IMG/VR virus record: IMGVR_UViG_3300032237_001169
Span: 44,842-108,841 of that record
Source of the DNA: a virus
Taxonomy: Duplodnaviria > Caudoviricetes
Reading direction: 5' to 3' (one strand)
Length of the DNA: 64,000 bases
Position numbers and translations under genes: made by a program. A model generated the notes under the pieces. The model searched no databases. It worked only from the letters and a program-made list of their open reading frames with translations, and was not told the DNA's origin. This document shows, piece after piece, positions 2,514-50,245 of this stretch. Numbering within the stretch: position 1 is the stretch's first letter; every line of letters begins with the position of its first letter.

Positions 2514-3269
2514 ATGAATGAATATTATGTATATGCACTACTAGACCCTCGGAAACCCGGAGTATTTAAATATGATAAAATCAATTGTATTTTTAATTTT
2601 CAACCATATTACATTGGAAAAGGATCTAAAAATCGTGTTGTTAGACATTTTACGGAATTAGAATCATCGAAAAGATATAATCAAATTAAATATTATAAAA
2701 TAAAAAATATAATAAAAGAGGGATATGATCCAAAATTATATTTTGTTATTATAAATAACAATTTAGAAGAAAAACAAGCACTATTATTAGAATCTGAATA
2801 TATAAAAATCTTAGGAAGAATTGATAAAAAAACAGGAATCCTTTCAAATCTTACCGACGGTGGAGAAGACTCATCAATGATGACATCGAAACTCTCAGGT
2901 AAAAGTTATGAACAGATATACGGAATAAAAAAAGCAAATAAATTAAAAAATGATAAAAAAATTCGATTTAGTGGAAAAAACAATCCGATGTATGGTAAAA
3001 AATGTTGGTTAAATGGAAATCATCAGACAGAAGAAACTAAGAAAAAAATATCCGACCAAAGAAAAAAACCCATAAAGCAATTGACACTGCAAGGAAGTTT
3101 GATAAAGATATGGTCGTCAGCAATAGATGCGGCTAATGAATTGGGGATTAGTAAATCTAGCATACACAATGTTACAAATCCCAATATGCGAGCAAAAACT
3201 GCTGCCGGATATAAATGGGAGTACGTAGATACAAAAAATATAAAATATGAATGCGACAATTCACTCTGA
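2514..3269 (+). mobile_element. Free-standing GIY-YIG homing endonuclease with NUMOD3/NUMOD1 tail
   Basis: YVYALLDPR..YYIGKG..R, NLTDGGE, NPMYGK, W.SA.DAA.ELG. Confidence 0.85.
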
Positions 3270-8381: not shown

Positions 8382-9459
8382 TAAGTTATATAGTGAAGAT
8401 TCATCCGGCAACATTCGTGTGTGGTGGATAGAACAAAAAGATAACATGTATAGAACACATTCAGGTGTGTCAAACGGACAAATCGTTACAACAGAATTTA
8501 CAGAATGTACTTCAAAAAATTCTGGAAAACAGAATGAAACATCGCCTGTAATACAATGTACAAAGGAGTGCGAATCTCTAATAAAGAAAAAATTAAAAAC
8601 TGGTTATCACAAAAACGAGAAAGACGCCGCTCTTGGAACCAATTATGTCGAACCGATGTTGGCAAAAAAGTACGGAGAAGTGGATTTTGTATTTCCGGTT
8701 TATACACAACCAAAACTAGATGGTATGCGTTGTATTGTAACTAAAGATGGAATGTGGAGTCGTACCGGAAAACCGGTGGTATCAGCACCTCATGTTTACA
8801 ACGCTCTAAAACCTCTTTTTTTGAAAGATCAAAATTATATTTTTGATGGCGAATTATTCTGTAATAAATATAAAAATGATTTCAATGCGATCATTAGTTT
8901 GGCTAAACAGACTAAGCCAACTACCGAAGATTTGGTGTTGAGTGAAAAACACCTTCAATATTGGATTTATGATTTACCAAGCAGCAAGAAGGTCTTTTCA
9001 GAAAGATTCGAGGATATTCAAAAGTTGGTTCCTAATCATAAATCGTTGGTCATCGTTCCTACCAATCTTGTAAATACTCAAGAAGAGTTGGACGGTTTGT
9101 ATGCTGAATATCTAAAAGACGGGCAAGAGGGACAAATGATTCGTATCAATGACGTGTATGAAAACAAACGAAGTAAGTTTCTTTTGAAGAGAAAAGAGTT
9201 CGTTGACGATGAGTTTCGTATCGTCGATATCTCTGAAGGAAAAGGCAATCGTTCAGGAATGTTTGGTCGTGCCCATCTGATCACATCCAGCGGAGTTGAA
9301 TTTGAAGCGAACGCCCGTGGAAATGAATGTTTTTATCAAGAATTGCTTAAAAATAAATCTAAATATATCGGTAAAATGGCCACTGTTCGTTATCAAAACC
9401 TAACACCAGATGGAAAACCTAGATTTGGTGTAGTTATTGTGATTCGCGATTATGAATGA
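8365..9459 (+). CDS. lig: ATP-dependent DNA ligase
   Basis: QPKLDGMRC, FDGELF, EGQMIR, YENKRSKFLLKRK, KPRFG. Confidence 0.95.
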   Translation: MNKVFDKLYSEDSSGNIRVWWIEQKDNMYRTHSGVSNGQIVTTEFTECTSKNSGKQNETSPVIQCTKECESLIKKKLKTGYHKNEKDAALGTNYVEPMLAKKYGEVDFVFPVYTQPKLDGMRCIVTKDGMWSRTGKPVVSAPHVYNALKPLFLKDQNYIFDGELFCNKYKNDFNAIISLAKQTKPTTEDLVLSEKHLQYWIYDLPSSKKVFSERFEDIQKLVPNHKSLVIVPTNLVNTQEELDGLYAEYLKDGQEGQMIRINDVYENKRSKFLLKRKEFVDDEFRIVDISEGKGNRSGMFGRAHLITSSGVEFEANARGNECFYQELLKNKSKYIGKMATVRYQNLTPDGKPRFGVVIVIRDYE

Positions 9460-38145: not shown

Positions 38146-38739
38146 ATGTTACCACTATCTTTTTACGAAAGTGAGCAATTTGTAAAATTGCGAAACGAAT
38201 TGATTGCACGATACAATGAACCGCATCGTTACTATCACAATATTTTTCACATTAATGACATGCTTAATATTGCAATGGGTTGCCGCCCATCAAATAGTGG
38301 AGTAGTCAATTTGATTATTTGGTATCATGATGCAATTTATGATCCACAACGCAAAGATAATGAAGAAAAGAGTGCAGAACTTGCAATCAATCAATTGAAA
38401 GATTATCTTTCTACTGAAGATGTAGATTATGTTGCTAGTGGAATTTTGTTGACTAAGCATCAGTTTAGTAGCAATCTACTTACGGCTGACATGTCAGTTG
38501 TTATTGATTCAGATTTGTATATTTTGAGCCACGATTGGTGTTATACAGCATATGCCCGTGCTATTCGTAAAGAATATGCATATTTGAATGATGCTGAATA
38601 TATTGCTGGTCGCAAACAGTTTTTGGAAAAGATGTTGCTTAAAAATGCTTATTATGGCATTTTGCATGCTAGAAATTCCAAAGCAAAGAAAAATATGCAA
38701 ATGGAACTTGAGTATCTAAATAAAGATGTTTTGCTATGA
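38146..38739 (+). CDS. HD-superfamily phosphohydrolase (COG4339-like)
   Basis: Y.EPHRYYH...HI, WYHDAIYD...DNEEKSA, D.DL.IL, IRKEY, GRK.FL. Confidence 0.85.
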   Translation: MLPLSFYESEQFVKLRNELIARYNEPHRYYHNIFHINDMLNIAMGCRPSNSGVVNLIIWYHDAIYDPQRKDNEEKSAELAINQLKDYLSTEDVDYVASGILLTKHQFSSNLLTADMSVVIDSDLYILSHDWCYTAYARAIRKEYAYLNDAEYIAGRKQFLEKMLLKNAYYGILHARNSKAKKNMQMELEYLNKDVLL

Positions 38740-39866
38740 GCACAAATAAAACTGCAATTTTTGCCGCTTCGTGTGACCCAGTTACATACGGTCATATTGA
38801 TATTATTGATCGTGTAAGTAATACATTTGATAAAGTTATTGTTGCTATTGGTGTAAATGCAAGCAAGAAATATACTTTTAGTGTTGAAGAACGTATTAAG
38901 TTTATCAAGAAATCTGTAAAACAACCAAATAAGGTTGAAGTAACTAGTTTTAAAGGATTGCTTGCCGACTTTGCTTATCAGCAAAATGTAAAAACCATTA
39001 TCAAAGGTGTTCGTAGCAATCAAGATTTTGATTATGAACGATTGCTGCATGAAGTGAGTGTTACACAACAGGCAGGTATTGACACTCATATTTTGATTGC
39101 CGATCAAAAATTAAGTCATGTAAGTAGCAGTGCCGCAAAAGAATTGTGCAAGCACCAAGGATTGGTTCACGAATATGTTCCTTATTGCGTTAAAGCAGCA
39201 TTGGAACACGAAATCAACAATCAATTTATTCTTGGAATCACCGGTTCAATTGGCATGGGCAAGAGTTATGTAACTCAACAACTGATTGAACATTTTTCCA
39301 AACAAATGCAAGTTTTGCATGTGGATTTGGATGCTATCGCACATGAATTGTATGTGCGAACCGAACCTGTTTATGTTGAATTTCAAAACAATGTAAAAGA
39401 TACATTTGGTCTGAATGTAGAAGATTCAACCGAAATGCGTAAAAAACTTGGAAATATTGTTTTCAATGATAAAAATGAATTGAAGAAACTAAACGACCTT
39501 GCACGGCAACCATTGCTTACATTGATGCGTCAAAAAATGTATGGTTTTCAAGGATTGATTTTGTTGAATGGTGCATTGTTGGTTGAAGCAAATTTTCTTC
39601 CATTATGCAACAATAATGTTGTAGTGGTAAATACAGGTATTACTGAACAAATTCAAAATCTAAAAAATCGAGGATTGACAATTCAACAAATTCAGCGTCG
39701 TATCAATTGCCAACTGAATAACAATCAAAAAATTGATATTATCAACGAATCTATATTGATCAATCGTTATGGAACCTGCATTCCATATAACAATAGCAAA
39801 AATAACCCGGCAGATAAATTTAAGTCTTTGACCGATCAAGTATCAGCCGCAATGTATTTGCGATAA
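38736..39866 (+). CDS. coaD-coaE: Bifunctional phosphopantetheine adenylyltransferase / dephospho-CoA kinase
   Basis: S.DPVTYGHIDII.R, KG.RS..DFDYE, SSS..KE; GITGSIGMGKS, D.D.IAH, R.KLG.IVF. Confidence 0.85.
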   Translation: MSTNKTAIFAASCDPVTYGHIDIIDRVSNTFDKVIVAIGVNASKKYTFSVEERIKFIKKSVKQPNKVEVTSFKGLLADFAYQQNVKTIIKGVRSNQDFDYERLLHEVSVTQQAGIDTHILIADQKLSHVSSSAAKELCKHQGLVHEYVPYCVKAALEHEINNQFILGITGSIGMGKSYVTQQLIEHFSKQMQVLHVDLDAIAHELYVRTEPVYVEFQNNVKDTFGLNVEDSTEMRKKLGNIVFNDKNELKKLNDLARQPLLTLMRQKMYGFQGLILLNGALLVEANFLPLCNNNVVVVNTGITEQIQNLKNRGLTIQQIQRRINCQLNNNQKIDIINESILINRYGTCIPYNNSKNNPADKFKSLTDQVSAAMYLR

Positions 39867-39904: not shown

Positions 39905-40477
39905 ATGAAATACTTTTTAGGCCTAGATGTAGAAACAGGCGGCATCGCTGATGATAAATCATTGTTGACCGCATATTTTGGATTTTATGAGTTGGTTAAT
40001 GATAACTTCAATAAGTTGGATGAACTTGATTTGAAGATCAAGCCCAATGATAATGTTTATCATCTTACTGCCGAAAGTCTTGATATTAACAAAATCAATA
40101 TTATTGAACACAACAAAGTTGCAATATTTGAGAAGATTGCCGGTCAACAACTATATAAAAAGCTTCAAGACTGGTTTAATGTCAGCAAGGGTAAACTGAT
40201 TCCCGTTGGACATAATGTGAATTTTGATATTCGCAAAGTGACCACTACCTTGATTAGTCTTGGAAGTTGGGAGAATTTTGTCAGTTATCGTTTGATGGAT
40301 ACATGCACAATTGCTCAATTTTATCGTATTTGTGGCAAGTTGCCCGATGATCTTAGTTGCAGTCTTGGACATTTGGCTGGATATTACAAAGTGTATTCCA
40401 GCGGCAAACAGCATGAAGCAAAATGTGATGTCGAATTGACAATGGGTGTATTAAAAAATCTAATGAAAAACGCATGA
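39905..40477 (+). CDS. DEDDh 3'-5' exonuclease
   Basis: LDVETGG, GHNV.FD, DT, HEA..DV. Confidence 0.9.
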   Translation: MKYFLGLDVETGGIADDKSLLTAYFGFYELVNDNFNKLDELDLKIKPNDNVYHLTAESLDINKINIIEHNKVAIFEKIAGQQLYKKLQDWFNVSKGKLIPVGHNVNFDIRKVTTTLISLGSWENFVSYRLMDTCTIAQFYRICGKLPDDLSCSLGHLAGYYKVYSSGKQHEAKCDVELTMGVLKNLMKNA

Positions 40478-40965
40478 AAAACATATTTGTATTTATTGCT
40501 GCTCTTAGCCTATTGACTGGGTGCATCAAAACGGAATCTACACAAATAAAAGATATTGAAGAAGCATTTCCAGATTGTGAAATTAGAAAAATTCCAAATA
40601 CTTCTACGTATCACCAATGGTTGGTGAAAACTCCAGCAAATAAAATCATTTACGTTTATTTTGATGCCGGATGTAATATTGTTTCAATTCCAATGTATTA
40701 AATTATGAAGACTAAAATTCTAGCATGTATTGCTATCGCAGTTGTGATGACGGGCTGCGAAAGAGAAAAATACATGTCACCAATGGATTGTGATATCGTA
40801 ATTAGAGAAAAATATACAAATTGTTCAATAACACGATTGACAATTCCAGAACAAGAACCTGATCGTGATAGTTATCACCCAAAGTGGTTAGTAAAAACTC
40901 CTGAAAATAATATTATCTTTATTCAACGATACAATGATGAATTAATTGAGCAAAATATTTTCTAA
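40474..40965 (+). CDS. Two paralogous small lipoproteins (40474-40701, 40705-40965)
   Basis: LTGC/MTGC lipoboxes; shared WLVKTP.N.II. Confidence 0.75.
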
Positions 40966-40968
40966 TAT

Positions 40969-41226
40969 ATGAATGAATATTTTTGTGGATGTGGAAATGC
41001 AATTCATAGTGAGCGTTATGCACTTGGATACAAAATTTGTTTAAAGTGTGGTGAGCGAGCTGCATTCAAACAAAAGCCATTTGGATATCCAAACTATGCA
41101 CATAAAACAGCAGGCAGTATTGTTATCACAAGCAAGGCTGGATTTGATAATTATAAAAAAATATCATATAGAAAAAACAAAGGAAGCAATATGGGTTATG
41201 CTTCTCGCCTTACAACTAGTTTTTAA
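40969..41226 (+). CDS. Zinc-finger phage protein
   Basis: C.CG..I..ER..LGY..CL.CGE, HK. Confidence 0.7.
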   Translation: MNEYFCGCGNAIHSERYALGYKICLKCGERAAFKQKPFGYPNYAHKTAGSIVITSKAGFDNYKKISYRKNKGSNMGYASRLTTSF

Positions 41227-41334
41227 AAAGTTCTTGACGTTTTCATTTTTTCGTCTATAGTTATAGGCGTAATGAAGATTGATTAAGATAAATCTCTGTT
41301 ACATAAACAAAGTAGAAAGATACAAGATAAATCT

Positions 41335-42267
41335 ATGAACGTTACACAACTCGCAGACGTTGCGATTATCGTTGGCAGATATCAAACTCACACACTTCAC
41401 GCGGAGCAAATCCGAATGATCGATGAAGTCGTCAAGCGTCACAATCACACAATCATTGTTATTGGAAATAGCTTGATGCGTGGAACCATTGCTAATCCAT
41501 TGGATTTTCGTGCCCGTAAAACAACGATTCAAGAAAAGTTTCCAAAAATTGATATTCTCTATATCAACGATATTCCCAAGGATAATACTCTTTGGAGCAC
41601 CAATCTTGACAAACTTATCAAGGATAATATCAATAACAATCAAACCGTGGCAATTTATGGTGCCAAAGACACTGTTATTGCAAAATACACTGGAAAATTT
41701 GCTACTTTTGAATTTGAAGCAAGTAGCTTTGTCAGTGCCGACGAACTGCGTCGTCAAGCAACTACCAATTATCAGCCAAACGAACAATATCGTGCCGGTA
41801 TTGTTGCCGCACAGGCAAATCGTTTTCCCACTGCATATCAAACGATTGATGTTGCAATTGTTGATGATAATGGTCGTTTGTTGATGGGTCGCAAGCCAAC
41901 TGAAACCAAGTGGCGTTTTATTGGCGGATTTAGCGATCCAAATAGTGCTTCGCTAGAAGCAGATGCTCGTCGTGAAGCTCAAGAGGAAACTGGTGTTGAA
42001 ATTGATGGAATCATTTATTTGGGTTCACTCAAAATCAACGATAGCCGTTATATGTTTGAAGTGGATTGCATTAAAACTGCTTTCTTCGTTGGCAAATATA
42101 TTTTTGGTCGTCCTCAAGGCAATGATGATATTGCCGAAGTGCGATGGATTCCTATCAAAGATTTGAACAAAAATGATATTGGTGAATTTCACCATGTTTT
42201 GGTTGACATGTTCATGGAGAAATTTGTTAAAAATGAAACGCTTTATAAGCAGTACGTTACTGCTTGA
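41335..42267 (+). CDS. nadM: Bifunctional NMN adenylyltransferase / ADP-ribose pyrophosphatase (NadM-Nudix)
   Basis: GRYQ..TLH, GNS....NPL, SA.ELR; Nudix GGF.D....E..ARRE..EETG, DD. Confidence 0.9.
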   Translation: MNVTQLADVAIIVGRYQTHTLHAEQIRMIDEVVKRHNHTIIVIGNSLMRGTIANPLDFRARKTTIQEKFPKIDILYINDIPKDNTLWSTNLDKLIKDNINNNQTVAIYGAKDTVIAKYTGKFATFEFEASSFVSADELRRQATTNYQPNEQYRAGIVAAQANRFPTAYQTIDVAIVDDNGRLLMGRKPTETKWRFIGGFSDPNSASLEADARREAQEETGVEIDGIIYLGSLKINDSRYMFEVDCIKTAFFVGKYIFGRPQGNDDIAEVRWIPIKDLNKNDIGEFHHVLVDMFMEKFVKNETLYKQYVTA

Positions 42268-42298
42268 CATACTTTAGTTAATCGCTAAAGTCATGGTT

Positions 42299-42339
42299 GT
42301 AAGATAACTGAGATACAGATAAGGTTAAATTACGAATAT
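42299..42339 (+). promoter_or_regulatory. Conserved leader element (copy 1)
   Basis: 36/41 identical to 43488-43528. Confidence 0.8.
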
Positions 42340-43453
42340 GAAAGAAAACTATATTAAAGAATTACAAAATTGTGGCAAGATGTTTTTTGTTGCCGCAACT
42401 GGTGGTGGTACGAGTTTTATTGGTGAATTTCTTAAAATTCCCGGTGGAAGCCAATGTATTGTTGGCGGTTATGTTCCTTACGCTATCGAAGCCACAAATA
42501 ATTTCGTTGGTGGCAAACTAGACAAATATGCAGATGCAAATGCTGCACGGCGTCTTGCAGTGGCAAGCTATGAAAATTGTCTAAAAATTAAAACTACAAC
42601 TACAAACAATTGTGTTGGTGTTGGTATTGCATGTAGTCTTGTAAAAGACAAAGAACGTGATGGACGTGAACATTACATTAATGTTGCTGTTCATACATAT
42701 AATGAAACATTTGGTGTTAGTGTTGTACTCAAAAAAAGCAAGCTAGATCGTGTTGAAGAAGAGGAATTTGTCAATGATTTGACACTATTTGTTCTCGCCA
42801 AGAGATATTGCAAGAATATTGACCGTGAATGGGAAATCGTTCACCAAATGATTTATTTGGACAATGGTGGTGAAGCGACGACTTTTTGGGGATACAATCG
42901 TATGGTTGATTGTGATTTGTATTGCAATGCAATCGATTATATTAATAAAAATGATACAATTGTTATTTACCCCGGCTCATTTTTTCCCCTACACGAAGGG
43001 CATCGTGAAATTTATCATTTAGCACATAAAATTACACAATTGCCTGTATTTTATGAATTGAGCGTTACCAACAGCTACAAACCTAGCATGGATTATGTAG
43101 ATTTGGAAAATCGTTACAAGCAATTCAACAATATTGGATGGCGCAATGCTGTAATTCTCACCAAGGCACCACGCTTTGTTGATAAAGTTACGTTGCTTAA
43201 AAAGCATTTTAATCCAAAAGAAATTATCATTGTTGTGGGTGCTGATACATGGGAACGTGTATATGATGATGCCGCACACAAAAATGGAGATATTAAGTTT
43301 TTTGAAGACAATAATGTGAAATTCTTGGTTTTTGGTCGCAATGCCGAAATTAAAAATCAAGATAGCACATTGTTTATTAAAAATGATTTGGCATTGAATT
43401 ATAACAATAACATTAGTTCGACTGCCATTAGAAAAGTTCAAGCTAGTGCTTGA
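42338..43453 (+). CDS. CinA-like domain plus HxGH nucleotidyltransferase
   Basis: TGGG......IPGGS....VPY; YPGSF.PLHEGH, VVGADT..R, ISSTAIR. Confidence 0.75.
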   Translation: MKENYIKELQNCGKMFFVAATGGGTSFIGEFLKIPGGSQCIVGGYVPYAIEATNNFVGGKLDKYADANAARRLAVASYENCLKIKTTTTNNCVGVGIACSLVKDKERDGREHYINVAVHTYNETFGVSVVLKKSKLDRVEEEEFVNDLTLFVLAKRYCKNIDREWEIVHQMIYLDNGGEATTFWGYNRMVDCDLYCNAIDYINKNDTIVIYPGSFFPLHEGHREIYHLAHKITQLPVFYELSVTNSYKPSMDYVDLENRYKQFNNIGWRNAVILTKAPRFVDKVTLLKKHFNPKEIIIVVGADTWERVYDDAAHKNGDIKFFEDNNVKFLVFGRNAEIKNQDSTLFIKNDLALNYNNNISSTAIRKVQASA

Positions 43454-43487
43454 CTTTACTGGCCGGTCATGTAAAGTGATTGGCGAA

Positions 43488-43528
43488 GTAAGTTAATTGA
43501 GATACAGATTAGATTAAATTACAAATAT
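43488..43528 (+). promoter_or_regulatory. Conserved leader element (copy 2)
   Basis: gtaagttaattgagatacagattagattaaattacaaatat. Confidence 0.8.
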
Positions 43529-44950
43529 ATGAATATTATTATTAATACCACTGAATGGGGTAAGAACATTTGTCTTACTACCGATAGCTACAAGCTCAAC
43601 CACTGGAATCAATATCCTATTGGCACACAGTACGTTTATTCGTATTTTGAATGCCGCAAGGGTGCTCGTTTTGCAGATGCTCCGTTTTTCGGATTGCAGC
43701 GCATTATTTTGGATCACCTTGTTGGCGTCGTTGTGACTCGCGCCAAGATTGAAAAGGCTGCACGTCTTTGCAAAGCTCATTTTGGAAATGAGAAATATTT
43801 CAATCGTGCTGGATGGGAACATATTCTCAATGTTCACGGCGGCAAACTTCCTATTCGCATTCGTGCTGTTGAAGAAGGCACTGTTGTTCCCGTTAATAAC
43901 GTTTTGATGACCATTGAAAACACTGATCCACAGTGCTATTGGCTCACCAATTTCCTCGAAACTATTCTCACTCATGTTTGGTACGGAACTACCGTTGCTG
44001 CATTGAGCCGCGAAGTTAAGCGCAAGGTTAACAAGTATTTGAAGAAGAATTCTGATGGCGGAATGCTGCAATTTTTCTTGCATGATTTCGGTTATCGTGG
44101 CGCATCTTCGTATGAAACTGCTGGCACTGGTGGTGCTGCTCATTTGATCAATTTCCTTGGCACCGACACTATCGTTGCTATGGAAACTGCAATGAATTAC
44201 TATAATGCAAATCTGGATACTCTTGCATTCAGCGTTGCTGCAACTGAACACAGCATTATGACTTCGATGGGTGCTGATGGTGAAGAGGGTGTTGTTGACC
44301 ATTTGCTCAATGAATATCCCGACGGCATTCTATCTGTTGTTTCTGATAGCTATGATATTTACAACTTCGTTGATAATATTGTAGGAAAAAAGTTCAAGGA
44401 TCGTATTGTTGCTCGTAATGGTGTATTTGTTGTTCGTCCAGATTCGATTACTCCTACTCACCAAACTCCTGAAGAGGAAATGGTTTGGATTATTGAATCT
44501 TTGTGGAAGAATTTCGGTGGCACCGTAAATAGCAAGGGATACAAGGTTATCAATCCAAAGATTCGTGTTCTTTGGGGTGACGGCATTGATATTGATGGAA
44601 TTGAAAAGATTCTTATTGCTGTTGATACTGCTGGATTTGCGACCGAAAATATTGCTTGTTTCGGTATGGGTGGTGGACTGTTGCAGAAGGTAAATCGTGA
44701 CACTCAGCGTTGCGCTTTCAAGTCGTCTGCTCAGTGCCGCAATGGTGTTTGGTACGATATTTTCAAAAATCCGAAGGATGCAACCAAGGCATCTAAGAAG
44801 GGCAAGCTCAAGTTGACCAAGATTAATGGTGAATTTGTCACGGTCATTGAGAATGAACCCGGCGAGGATTATTTGAAGGTCGTATTTGAGAATGGTGAAT
44901 TGGTCAAGTTTGTTGACTTTGACACCATTCGCAAGAATGCGGCACTCTAA
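43529..44950 (+). CDS. nadV: Nicotinamide phosphoribosyltransferase
   Basis: TDSYK..H..QYP, HDFGYRG, ATEHS, SVVSDSYD, VRPDS, GDG, FGMGGGLLQ..NRDT. Confidence 0.95.
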   Translation: MNIIINTTEWGKNICLTTDSYKLNHWNQYPIGTQYVYSYFECRKGARFADAPFFGLQRIILDHLVGVVVTRAKIEKAARLCKAHFGNEKYFNRAGWEHILNVHGGKLPIRIRAVEEGTVVPVNNVLMTIENTDPQCYWLTNFLETILTHVWYGTTVAALSREVKRKVNKYLKKNSDGGMLQFFLHDFGYRGASSYETAGTGGAAHLINFLGTDTIVAMETAMNYYNANLDTLAFSVAATEHSIMTSMGADGEEGVVDHLLNEYPDGILSVVSDSYDIYNFVDNIVGKKFKDRIVARNGVFVVRPDSITPTHQTPEEEMVWIIESLWKNFGGTVNSKGYKVINPKIRVLWGDGIDIDGIEKILIAVDTAGFATENIACFGMGGGLLQKVNRDTQRCAFKSSAQCRNGVWYDIFKNPKDATKASKKGKLKLTKINGEFVTVIENEPGEDYLKVVFENGELVKFVDFDTIRKNAAL

Positions 44951-44968
44951 AAGTTAGTTGAAAGGTTT

Positions 44969-44997
44969 GCGGTTATCCTACGAAACCGCTTTTTTTA
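44969..44997 (+). terminator. Intrinsic terminator
   Basis: gcggtt..aaccgc followed by ttttttt. Confidence 0.7.
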
Positions 44998-45492
44998 TGA
45001 AAACTACTAAATTATATGCAGTTCAAAAAAATGAAGACCAAACAGAAGGTCGTGGTCCAATGACCGATGTGTATTATACCACAAGTAAAGAACTGGCACT
45101 AAAAATAGTAACCTCGTTCATATTTTATGGAAAATATGGCGTACAAGGATGTCCTCCATATAAAGGCGGTGAATATGATATAAAAGAAAAAGAGTTTACT
45201 ATTTTAGAAAATCTGGAAGATTTCTTTAATATTGAAAATAATCTAAAAATAAAAAATGCATTGTCTAAATTGTCAGAAGAAGAAAAACAAATATTAGGTC
45301 TGAAATAGATTAATTATGAAAAAATCATATGGATTTAAAACTTACGCGGTTGTTTGTATTCATGATGATAATATCAATGATTTTCAAGTTATTGAATATT
45401 TTTATGCTCCAGATCCAGCATTTGAGTTGGTAGATGAATTAAATAAAAAAAATATTATTGGTAGAAAATACGAAGTAATGAAATATGATTGA
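44998..45492 (+). CDS. Two hypothetical proteins (44998-45308, 45316-45492)
   Basis: First has D.TEGRG and an ALSKLS.EEK.ILGL tail shared with 1681-1974. Confidence 0.6.
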
Positions 45493-45558
45493 CAATCTTC
45501 TATAAGACTGTATAGTGGTAAAAACTCTAAAATAATTATGTTTTTAAAAAATAACACT

Positions 45559-46065
45559 ATGGAAAATCCCTTCGCAGGTAAAAATGTTGCAACTGATACT
45601 CATGTCTATTTTTATACAAATTGGCTGAGTAACTGGAAAATTTGCAAGATTGTCGATCCTAATACCAAACTTGAATTTTCTACCACTGAACAGTTGTATA
45701 TGTGGTATAAAGCTAAGTTTTTTGGTGATACTGAAACGCTAAAAAAGCTTGAACTTGCCATTGATCCAAAAGTTGCCAAGGATCTTGGTCGTGTTGTAGC
45801 AAATTATAAAGATGATTTGTGGGAATGCGTTCGATATGGATATATGGTATATGCTAACTATCTGAAATATACTCAAAATCCTGAATTGAAGGAAAAGTTG
45901 CTTGCCACTGAAAATAAAATTTTGGTAGAAGCAAGTAAAATTGACAATATTTGGGGAGTTGGTCTTGCCGCAAATGATCCGCTTATTCTTGATGAAAAGA
46001 ATTGGACTGGCAGAAATTTGCTTGGAAAATCTATTATGGACGTTCGCAACTTGATCAAAAAGTAA
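45559..46065 (+). CDS. NADAR (YbiA/DUF1768) ADP-ribosyl glycohydrolase
   Basis: LSNW, EQ.YM..KA.FF.D, K.LGR.V, K..QN..L...LL.T, LVEAS..D.IWG.G, G.NLLG. Confidence 0.9.
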   Translation: MENPFAGKNVATDTHVYFYTNWLSNWKICKIVDPNTKLEFSTTEQLYMWYKAKFFGDTETLKKLELAIDPKVAKDLGRVVANYKDDLWECVRYGYMVYANYLKYTQNPELKEKLLATENKILVEASKIDNIWGVGLAANDPLILDEKNWTGRNLLGKSIMDVRNLIKK

Positions 46066-48118: not shown

Positions 48119-48338
48119 TCTAACAGAAGAACAATATAAGAAATTGTTGGTTGATGCTATTTGCAATCATTCTCCCGGCGCTTCTTGTGAAGAATCGCAT
48201 GAATTGGAAAAACGCGGATTTGCAAAATTCACTGGAAATCAATGAAACCAAGATTGGTCTTGGATTCCAAATGCATTGGAAAAAACGAATATTGGTTCGT
48301 TGGAAGAACTTTACAAAAATTATTTGCCCCAATCATAA
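48108..48338 (+). pseudogene. Hypothetical protein with in-frame TGA at 48243
   Basis: ...AKFTGNQ*NQDWSWIPNAL... Confidence 0.55.
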
Positions 48339-49216
48339 ATAAGTTTATATCCCGCATTTTCAATATTTTTGATTTTTTCTAATGTCAATTGATATAATTT
48401 TCCAAATTTTATTCCATTTTTTGGATTGACATCATCGGGATTATAAAATTTAGGATTACCATGCCAAAATGAACCAAAATATTCATAAACAATTTTATTT
48501 TTTTTATCATATGCATCAACTTTATATTTAATACCATTAATAATAATTATCTTTTGTCTATATTCTTTTGGAATGCCTAAAGAATCTAACCACAAAATTT
48601 CCGCTTTTGATACATTATATCCACAATGAGGACATCCGTTTTTTATGTAAATATGATTGCCTGCTTTTTGGGAAAACATTCCGTGTTGCGGACAAATAAT
48701 ATGAACGGAATTTTTCATACCGGTATAATTAACAATTGAATAATCATATTTTGAGCCGTGAATTGACTTAGACATATCAATAAACTCTTTGGTAGATAAC
48801 GTATTAAGCTGTGACAGTTTTATTGATTTGCATTTGGGACATCCTTTACCATGATTAACATGATTTAGAGGTAATTGTGTAAAAGTTCCATGCAAATTGC
48901 ATTTTATTTTTACTTTTGTTTGAGAATTTATATATTCCGTTTCAATGTAATTATACGTTCCATTATGAACTTTATTGGCATTACAAATAAATTCATCTTT
49001 AGTAAACGTTAAATTTTTATTTTGTTGTTCATATTGACATTTACTACATCCCTGTTTACGCATTATATGACAATACGGAGTTTGTAAAAAATCACCATGC
49101 AACGGACAAGTTATGACAACTTTTTTCTTGCTTCCTAGACAAACTACCTTACTATAGTCGTAGAAATTGTTATGCACCTGATTTGCTAAATCAAAATTAA
49201 AATCTTTTCGTCTCAT
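48320..49216 (-). mobile_element. Homing endonuclease with repeated zinc-binding modules and a Vsr-like domain
   Basis: Three copies of F...A..VH...YDYS....I.C..HG.F.Q....H...GC..C; VDAYD...YEYFGSFWHG. Confidence 0.85.
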
Positions 49217-49267
49217 ATACTTAAATATTAAGTAAAATAACTAAATTGTAAAATAAATAGACAAATT

Positions 49268-50245
49268 ATGAGTTCCAATAATAACCAACTTAAAATTTTT
49301 TCGGGGAGAGCTAACATCGAATTTACAGAGAAAATCTGCGATAATTCGGTCATTAAACCCGGTATGATTTATCATCATACTTTTCCAAATAAAGAATCAT
49401 ACTGTCAAATCAAAGAAAATGTAAGAGGATGTGATGTATTTTTGGTCTCTTGTAAAGGAGAAAACACAAACGATTCATTAATGGAATTGCTTATTATGGC
49501 CGATGCGGCAAAAAGAGCCAGTGCGGGAAGAATTACAGCAGTTATTCCATATTTTTACTACGGTCGTTCTGATCGCAAAGACAAGTCGCGTGTACCAATC
49601 AGTGCCAAATTGGTTCTTGACATTATCGAAACTGCCGGTATTGACCGTGTGGTAACTATGGATTTGCACAGTCCTCAAGTTGGTGGATTTACCAATTTGC
49701 CATTTGATCATTTGACCTTTGAACCTGTGCTTGTCAATTATATTCGTAACAAGTATCATAGTCTTGCACTGCGTGATAGTGTTGTTTTGATGGCACCTGA
49801 TGTTGGTGCTGTTAAGCGAATTGAAAAATATGCTACTATTCTAAAAAGTGATTTTGGATTTATTAGCAAAAAGCGTATTGGTGATGACAAAGTTGAATTG
49901 CAGAGTATTGTTGGCGATGTCAAAGGCAAACACGTTATCATTATTGATGATTTGACTGAAAGCTGTGGAACTCTGATTCAAGCTGCGGATGCTTGCAAAA
50001 ACAATGGTGCAACCAATGTAACTACTGTTGTAACACACGGTTGCATTACTGAAACAGGTGTTAATCGACTTGAAAATGCACTTGTAAATAAAGTTATTGA
50101 TGAATTTGTATATAGCAATACAGCAAATATTGCCAAGAATACAAAGTTGGCAGATCGTCTTGTTGAATTGGATGTTAGCATGGTGTTTGCCAAAGCAATC
50201 AATAACATTCACAACAATGAAAGTGTAAGCGAATTGTTTATCTGA
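49268..50245 (+). CDS. prs: Ribose-phosphate pyrophosphokinase
   Basis: MELL...DA.KRASA.RI.AVIPY..Y.R.DRK, MDLH, PD.GA, IIDD....GT. Confidence 0.95.
   Translation: MSSNNNQLKIFSGRANIEFTEKICDNSVIKPGMIYHHTFPNKESYCQIKENVRGCDVFLVSCKGENTNDSLMELLIMADAAKRASAGRITAVIPYFYYGRSDRKDKSRVPISAKLVLDIIETAGIDRVVTMDLHSPQVGGFTNLPFDHLTFEPVLVNYIRNKYHSLALRDSVVLMAPDVGAVKRIEKYATILKSDFGFISKKRIGDDKVELQSIVGDVKGKHVIIIDDLTESCGTLIQAADACKNNGATNVTTVVTHGCITETGVNRLENALVNKVIDEFVYSNTANIAKNTKLADRLVELDVSMVFAKAINNIHNNESVSELFI

Follow-up and report, generated by a model that had tools for sequence, protein, structure and literature searches.

Salvage of nicotinamide adenine dinucleotide (NAD) by phages, through NadV and a nicotinamide mononucleotide (NMN) adenylyltransferase (the NARP2 route), counters NAD+-depleting bacterial immunity (PMC13464706; bioRxiv 10.1101/2024.02.11.579819). 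Control of phage NAD-salvage genes has not been described in the literature, and our literature search found no paper combining nadV, riboswitch and phage. Among known systems close to the one described here are two riboswitch classes: NAD+-II (pnuC motif) is built of P1/P1a with a pseudoknot and has a variable terminal loop (PMC7749635), and NAD+-I (nadA motif) consists of two bulged stem-loops with a ACANCCCC bulge (PMC7297122). Here we describe a leader RNA preceding three NAD-salvage genes, nadM-Nudix, pncC-nadD and nadV, located between positions 41335 and 44950 of a phage sequence. The window analysed covers the last 64 kb, at the 3' end, of IMG/VR virus record IMGVR_UViG_3300032237_001169 (here G000), which has 108.8 kb and is estimated to be about 51% complete. 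This leader RNA is real, selected and uncatalogued, and it defines a three-gene NAD-salvage regulon. Like the NAD+-I and NAD+-II riboswitches, it is a short 5'-untranslated RNA found before NAD-metabolism genes and near the start codon.

Each of the three genes has its own TTGAC-type promoter, as an earlier reading made without database searches (the sequence-only reading) had noticed, and each promoter is followed by one or two hairpins (Table 1). Their general plan consists of outer stem GUAA/UUAC, small internal loop, inner stem of 4-6 bp and open loop of 10-15 nt. The loop displays the motif GAGAUAC(A)AGAUAA, that is two GAUW half-sites 2-4 nt apart, or more generally GAUW-N2-4-GAUA. Exact matches of AGATACAGATWA occur in the window only at 42311 and 43500, and of AGATACAAGATAA only at 41318; GAGATACAGATWAG has only two occurrences in the whole record. 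These searches agree with the earlier statement that the core motif is confined to the three leaders.

The pncC-nadD and nadV leaders form a 41-nt repeat (42299-42339 and 43488-43528), whose reported identity of 36/41 (88%) was reproduced. Minimum-free-energy (MFE) folding predicts both stems proposed before, gtaa/ttac and taac/gtta (taat/atta in the second copy), and both are kept in relatives. In pncC-nadD, the outer stem joins GUAA (42299-42302) with UUAC (42330-42333), and the inner stem joins UAACU (42305-42309) with GGUUA (42323-42327), closed by a U-G wobble around a 13-nt loop, GAGAUACAGAUAA (42310-42322); its MFE is -6.5 kcal/mol (z -2.7). The nadV hairpin pairs GUAA (43488-43491) with UUAC (43519-43522) and UUAAUU (43493-43498) with GAUUAA (43512-43517), leaving a 13-nt loop, GAGAUACAGAUUA (43499-43511). 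A further tg/ca mini-helix around an AGAUA pentaloop had to be abandoned, being neither predicted by MFE nor kept in relatives, where these positions read UA..CA (locus L004), CG..UA and UG..AA (L017) or AA..CA (L003). The loop of this hairpin type is an open one of 13-14 nt; UAAC is followed by a U, which pairs instead with the G that precedes GUUA. Taken alone, hairpins of this type are weak (-2.8 to -6.5 kcal/mol), which fits an element needing a bound factor to work.

The nadM leader contains both noted copies of AGATAAATCT (41287-41296 and 41325-41334), and it is better described as two hairpins, 1a and 1b. Hairpin 1a has outer stem GUAA (41269-41272)/UUAC (41299-41302) and inner stem AGAUU (41276-41280)/AAUCU (41291-41295) with loop GAUUAAGAUA (41281-41290). 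The 3' arm of hairpin 1b takes in A and U of the nadM start codon (ATG 41335-41337). The leaders had been said to end right at the start codon; such overlap exists only in hairpin 1b, and hairpins of pncC-nadD and nadV end 4-6 nt before ATG. When eight divergent leaders were folded by MFE, the motif was always found in a loop of 10-13 nt. Neither a loop-to-tail pseudoknot nor an antisense partner of the loop was seen consistently across leaders.

We gathered fifteen further loci, with all or some of the three genes, from related metagenomic phages by searching with the protein of the middle gene, scanning viral as well as metagenome contigs and looking up contigs. Their pncC-nadD proteins are 51-92% identical to that of the window. 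In the alignment of 25 pncC/nadV leaders, 94.8% of cells pair, versus 24-46% when partners are slid. Both sides have changed in 6 of 9 pairs, some of these changes stemming from a misaligned L003 nadV row. Solid covariation is present at pair 15-32 (CG in 14 leaders, UA in 10), which bears out the compensatory C-G to U-A swap first noticed in the nadV copy, and at the closing pair (UG, CG or UA). Hairpin 1a behaves similarly: among seven homologues 88.6% of cells pair (28-55% when slid), and compensatory changes affect 6 of 10 pairs, at most one when slid. Its stems are divergent in L043 (GACC/GGUC), L046, L047, L018 and L061. For hairpin 1b, 97.2% of cells pair in eight homologues (13-56% when slid); covariation is weak here, as only one of five pairs is compensatory and 71 of 500 shuffles reach that.

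In total, the same loop is found on at least 15 distinct stem sequences. They include UAACU/GGUUA with U-G wobble, UAACC/GGUUA, UUAAUU/GAUUAA, UUAAUU/AAUUAA, GAUU/AAUC, AGAUU/AAUCU, ACGAUU/AAUCGU, GAAAUU/AAUUUC, GAAAUU/AGUUUC, GACC/GGUC, GUAUAU/GUAUAC inside GUGUUA/UAACAC, GUAAUUU/AAAUUAC and others. The half-sites are separated by CA, CAA, UAA or UUU, loops measure 10-15 nt, and some members have UAUAA, AAUAA or GAAA in place of the second half-site. The 23-nt non-coding core is 80-92% identical, compared with 65-77% for adjacent coding DNA. Stem covariation, a core more conserved than coding DNA and, above all, the G-U wobbles together show that selection acts on an RNA structure and not on a site in duplex DNA.

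One copy departs from the common arrangement. In L003 (1035-1090), a 13-nt deletion relative to L042 in the pncC-nadD promoter spacer breaks up the spacing of TTGACA-N16-TATAGT. Where the outer stem GUAAGA used to be, a -10-like TAAAAA has newly appeared, and the outer stem is thereby lost.

A DNA operator had been named before as an alternative; a transcription factor would recognise it just downstream of the three promoters. The element indeed sits at +1 to +45 of these promoters and contains direct repeats AGATA-N-AGATA, and the L003 deletion puts a possible -10 beside the motif, so that the 5' arm may go untranscribed. On the contrary, the inverted repeats vary freely but stay complementary, including G-U (T-G) wobbles that are meaningless in duplex DNA. 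Moreover, the placement of hairpin 1b and of the nadV copies relative to mRNA start or start codon is maintained, and no DNA-binding domain is found in the three enzymes. We consider a DNA operator very improbable.

Further, we examined distribution of the element. The covariance model R1, built from the 25 pncC/nadV leaders, finds only two copies in the 108.8-kb record, that of nadV (about 69.5-69.6 bits) and that of pncC-nadD (67.1 bits), the next best matches scoring 16-18 bits; two records from relatives, 85 and 47 kb long, likewise gave only two R1 matches each. The nadM hairpins were recognised by eye and motif scan, not by R1. In all loci, the element stands only before nadM, pncC-nadD or nadV, and it was not found before NADAR, phosphoribosyl pyrophosphate (PRPP) synthetase (prs), ADP-ribosyl glycohydrolase (ARH) and radical SAM genes or small open reading frames of the loci examined. 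Within the window, about 25 promoters are present, and the hairpin follows only three of them, all belonging to NAD genes.

A looser hairpin-plus-motif scan retrieved the four hairpins and otherwise chance matches; genome-wide it was not enriched (78 matches, whereas shuffles gave about 105). Two further sites with GAGATAC-TATAA (at 8833 and 20837 of the record) were discarded, as they lie in a coding region and in a -10 box. The possibility that GATAAAT represents a late promoter was rejected, since most relatives lack the extra A. DNA similarity search against 50,697 phage records yielded just short coding matches in nadV, and exact motif scan of viral contigs returned only two contigs, both already known. 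The sole match to the stem-loop pattern among 185,579 bacterial genomes, in Marinifaba aquimaris, has a mispaired stem and no NAD gene nearby and is due to chance. In distant relatives (L010, L011, L021, L026, L027, L062 and G003; pncC-nadD at most about 45% identical), the element is absent and the genes are often leaderless.

The hairpins start 6-7 nt downstream of the -10 hexamer in nadM and pncC-nadD leaders (7 nt in nadM of the window) and 8-10 nt downstream in nadV leaders. The hairpin thus begins at about the mRNA 5' end, within approximately 0-4 nt of the predicted one. The nadM promoter is kept in L003, L004, L015, L040-L043 and L046.

This position would suit a 5'-terminal stability or processing element, which shields the 5' end of the mRNA against decay of the RNase E/RppH type or offers an A/U-rich loop to an endonuclease and senses no pathway. 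In nadM and pncC-nadD, the first base of the outer stem roughly coincides with the predicted +1, the distance between hairpin and AUG is variable in nadV leaders, and the loops hold AGAUU/AGAUA sites resembling those of RNase E, which prefers RN|WUU. However, a generic stabiliser needs no conserved loop sequence and would not be limited to three NAD genes among the promoters of the window, and hairpin 1b is not 5'-terminal. We regard this explanation as quite unlikely.

We also analysed translation starts in the whole record. Shine-Dalgarno (SD) 4-mers at -20 to -5 precede only 2 of 98 genes (plus-strand open reading frames, 100 aa or longer). Leaders are rich in A and poor in G, with T at position -1 in 71%, and several genes are leaderless, their ATG lying 6 nt after the -10 hexamer (promoters at 1981, 37460 and 39871 of the window). 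The host evidently combines SD-independent initiation with sigma-70-like TTGAC promoters. As SD sites are almost absent, initiation should need an open leader, and a hairpin near or over AUG would act as a natural brake.

The reading that we put forward, with slightly less than even confidence, is that of a protein-read RNA operator limiting translation of nadM-Nudix, pncC-nadD and nadV. We infer its action on translation, its repressive effect and the protein nature of its reader alike. Each NAD-salvage mRNA would start with a hairpin displaying the conserved purine/A-U loop, and such a hairpin, ending 4-6 nt before AUG or including it (nadM), would hinder ribosome loading. A sequence-specific reader, most likely a phage-encoded protein, could bind the loop and lock the weak hairpin. 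Its binding might lower translation of all three genes at once, with two sites available on nadM-Nudix. Variation of half-site spacing and loop length and occasional replacement of the second half-site argue for a protein rather than a small ligand.

NadM-Nudix is possibly the reader. A NadM-Nudix fusion of 295-313 aa is encoded in 13 of 13 element-bearing loci that cover the nadM region; in five relatives without the element, the fusion is never found (0/5) and only stand-alone Nudix of about 150-177 aa is present.

Several observations weigh against a protein-read brake. In L003, L017 and L046, 18-21 nt that include a purine-rich stretch separate the nadV hairpin from AUG, and simple occlusion by the hairpin alone would fail there. 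Search for a RegA-type repressor (PF01818) gave no signal in the records, which are partial, nor did it in control genomes. Co-occurrence with NadM-Nudix is phylogenetically confounded, the element being found essentially in one clade. In addition, nadV has no leader in L018 and L048 after homing-endonuclease insertions, the L045 leader is stranded upstream of such an insertion, and pncC-nadD of L061 has no leader of its own. The element is thus dispensable for expression.

The sequence-only reading had proposed a NAD regulon under an RNA element, possibly a riboswitch. The conserved covarying leader on three genes stands. A very small riboswitch would bind a NAD-related metabolite (NAD+, NMN, nicotinic acid mononucleotide, ADP-ribose or nicotinamide) by its loop, perhaps together with the A-rich 3' tail, and so alter access to the start codon. 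Restriction to three genes of one pathway is the usual riboswitch signature, unpaired nucleotides are highly conserved, and the nadM arrangement is tandem. Small hairpin-type riboswitches do exist, such as preQ1-I and guanidine-II.

Nevertheless, comparison of region 40000-46000 with Rfam (cmscan, E<=10) yielded three chance matches only and none in the leaders; the element is neither of the riboswitches considered earlier, NAD+-I or NAD+-II. In NAD+-II, the internal loop is conserved and a pseudoknot involves the ribosome-binding site, whereas in the window the terminal loop is conserved and stems vary, which is the opposite architecture. No CCCC-containing bulge of NAD+-I type was present in any leader examined. 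Variable loop length and spacing and a replaced second half-site are unusual for a ligand pocket, and a conserved pseudoknot partner was not seen. Finally, leaders of similar architecture in other phage lineages (see below) have unrelated loops, whereas one-ligand aptamers are normally conserved across lineages. Lineage-specific loops on the same genes would be expected if an operator evolves together with its phage-encoded reader, and not of an aptamer for a universal metabolite. A riboswitch is in our opinion unlikely.

In a broader version, the hairpin would be a sensor of NAD-state feedback, either as a minimal riboswitch or as an operator read by nucleotide-binding NadM-Nudix that is displaced by substrates or products. 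We hold this to be rather unlikely. If it were true, the phage would raise its NAD-rebuilding enzymes exactly when host defence depletes NAD+.

Insertions mentioned above separate the nadV promoter and leader from the frame. Endonuclease genes are located there in L045 (3190-4530, LAGLIDADG-type), L018 (4605-5815) and L048 (3626-3815). In L045, the part cut off upstream of the endonuclease gene comprises the intact hairpin and five initial nadV codons (ATGAATAAGAAAAAC, followed by a stop), and nadV restarts at a new ATG just after that gene. In L061, the 51%-identical relative, pncC-nadD begins 4 nt after nadM with no promoter or hairpin between (2990-3005); its nadM retains two hairpins and its nadV one, with GAUU/AAUC stem.

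The phage, a large one from a lake, is T4-like, as rIIA, RNA ligase 1 and DNA ligase genes are present and T4 Y10B occurs in relatives. Protein search located pncC-nadD on a 313.8-kb contig, too. Assignment of nadM-Nudix is based on the Pfam NUDIX match (3.5e-13) and weak NCBIfam bifunctional NMNAT/Nudix matches across both halves. The pncC-nadD product was identified from Pfam CTP_transf_like, NCBIfam nicotinate-nucleotide adenylyltransferase and source names of homologues. The likely terminator after nadV, also found 3' of nadV in L040, L041 and L044, was not listed by the terminator scan, its loop exceeding 8 nt.

Table 1. Features of the NAD-salvage locus (window positions) and two-hairpin leaders of public phages (locus positions).
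Feature	Position	Strand	Description
nadM-Nudix promoter	41234..41261	+	sigma-70-type, TTGACG-N16-TATAGT
nadM leader hairpin 1a	41269..41302	+	MFE fold
Linker between hairpins 1a and 1b	41303..41311	+	A/C-rich, AUAAACAAA
nadM leader hairpin 1b	41312..41336	+	stem GUAGA/UCUAU, loop AAGAUACAAGAUAAA; MFE fold
nadM-Nudix	41335..42267	+	310 aa; N-terminal NMN adenylyltransferase part and Nudix ADP-ribose pyrophosphatase-like domain
pncC-nadD promoter	42264..42291	+	TTGACA-N16-TAAAGT; overlaps nadM stop codon
pncC-nadD leader hairpin	42299..42333	+	ATG 4 nt downstream
pncC-nadD	42338..43453	+	371 aa; pncC-like N-terminal domain fused to NadD-type nucleotide adenylyltransferase
nadV promoter	43450..43477	+	TTGACT-N16-TAAAGT; overlaps pncC-nadD stop codon
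nadV leader hairpin	43488..43522	+	ATG 6 nt downstream; MFE fold
nadV	43529..44950	+	nicotinamide phosphoribosyltransferase, 473 aa; Pfam NAMPT_N and NAPRTase, NCBIfam 2.5e-162
Likely intrinsic terminator	44968..44995	+	GCGGUU/AACCGC, then T run; read from sequence
Two-hairpin leaders of GAP32, XbC2, Aeh1, QD01	L067:440-517, 2180-2236; L070:930-1015, 2620-2709; L068:1790-1885; L069:2640-2721		

Genes on both sides of the trio lack the hairpin. This is true for a CoaD-CoaE fusion (38736-39866) upstream of the trio and for NADAR (45538-46065) and PRPP synthetase (49268-50245) downstream of it. The prs leader (49215-49267) starts with GUAAAAUAACU, which resembles the 5' half of the pncC-nadD hairpin, and it has neither loop motif nor 3' arm. 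This may be a decayed hairpin copy or chance. Just upstream of prs, the minus strand carries an endonuclease gene of DUF723 type (48320-49216). Directly upstream of nadM, the window encodes an 85-aa protein (40969-41226) with CxC...CxxC zinc-ribbon and basic tail, which has no match in Pfam or PHROG. It occupies the same position in L004, L040, L041 and one further contig, not in L042, L043, L046 and L047.

All three NAD-salvage genes thus carry a dedicated, strongly selected and clearly covarying RNA in an SD-less setting. Because of this, the element offers a compact and directly testable way into post-transcriptional control of a counter-defence pathway, through RNAs of 45-80 nt.

Among known translational operators, those of T4/RB69 gene 43, MS2 coat protein-replicase and E. 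coli thrS are similar in having a hairpin at the translation start with conserved loop and covarying stem. In these operators the loop is presumably the recognised part, and several sites are possible per mRNA. Unlike them, the element described here is common to three metabolic genes instead of serving the regulator's own gene only, and it lies in an SD-less setting.

Public genomes provide another parallel. Two-hairpin leaders precede nadM-Nudix and/or nadV in phages GAP32, XbC2, Aeh1 and QD01. In Cronobacter phage GAP32 and Xanthomonas phage XbC2, a 5-bp stem with loop NGNUGUAG is followed by a linker and by CUAAG-GGAGU-CUUAG directly before AUG; Aeromonas phage Aeh1 and Vibrio phage QD01 have variants of this plan. 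R1 does not match the leaders of these four phages; the parallel is one of architecture and gene context. The first hairpin displays NGNUGUAG or AAGAA, whereas the loops of our element have 10-15 nt with GAUW...GAUA, and the second shows an SD sequence, GGAG(U/C), as pentaloop, whereas the corresponding loop in the window is AAGAUACAAGAUAA(A) and contains no SD. Also, pncC-nadD and nadV of the window have one composite hairpin each instead of two. The systems also have features in common. In both, nadM-Nudix and nadV have promoters of their own and short structured leaders, stems are variable and the loop is fixed, and neither type is catalogued. The nadM leader of the window likewise consists of two hairpins joined by an A/C-rich linker, the second one abutting AUG. 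Leaders of similar plan and different sequence in GAP32-, XbC2-, Aeh1- and QD01-type phages are a hint that one principle of regulation recurs and evolves along with its reader.

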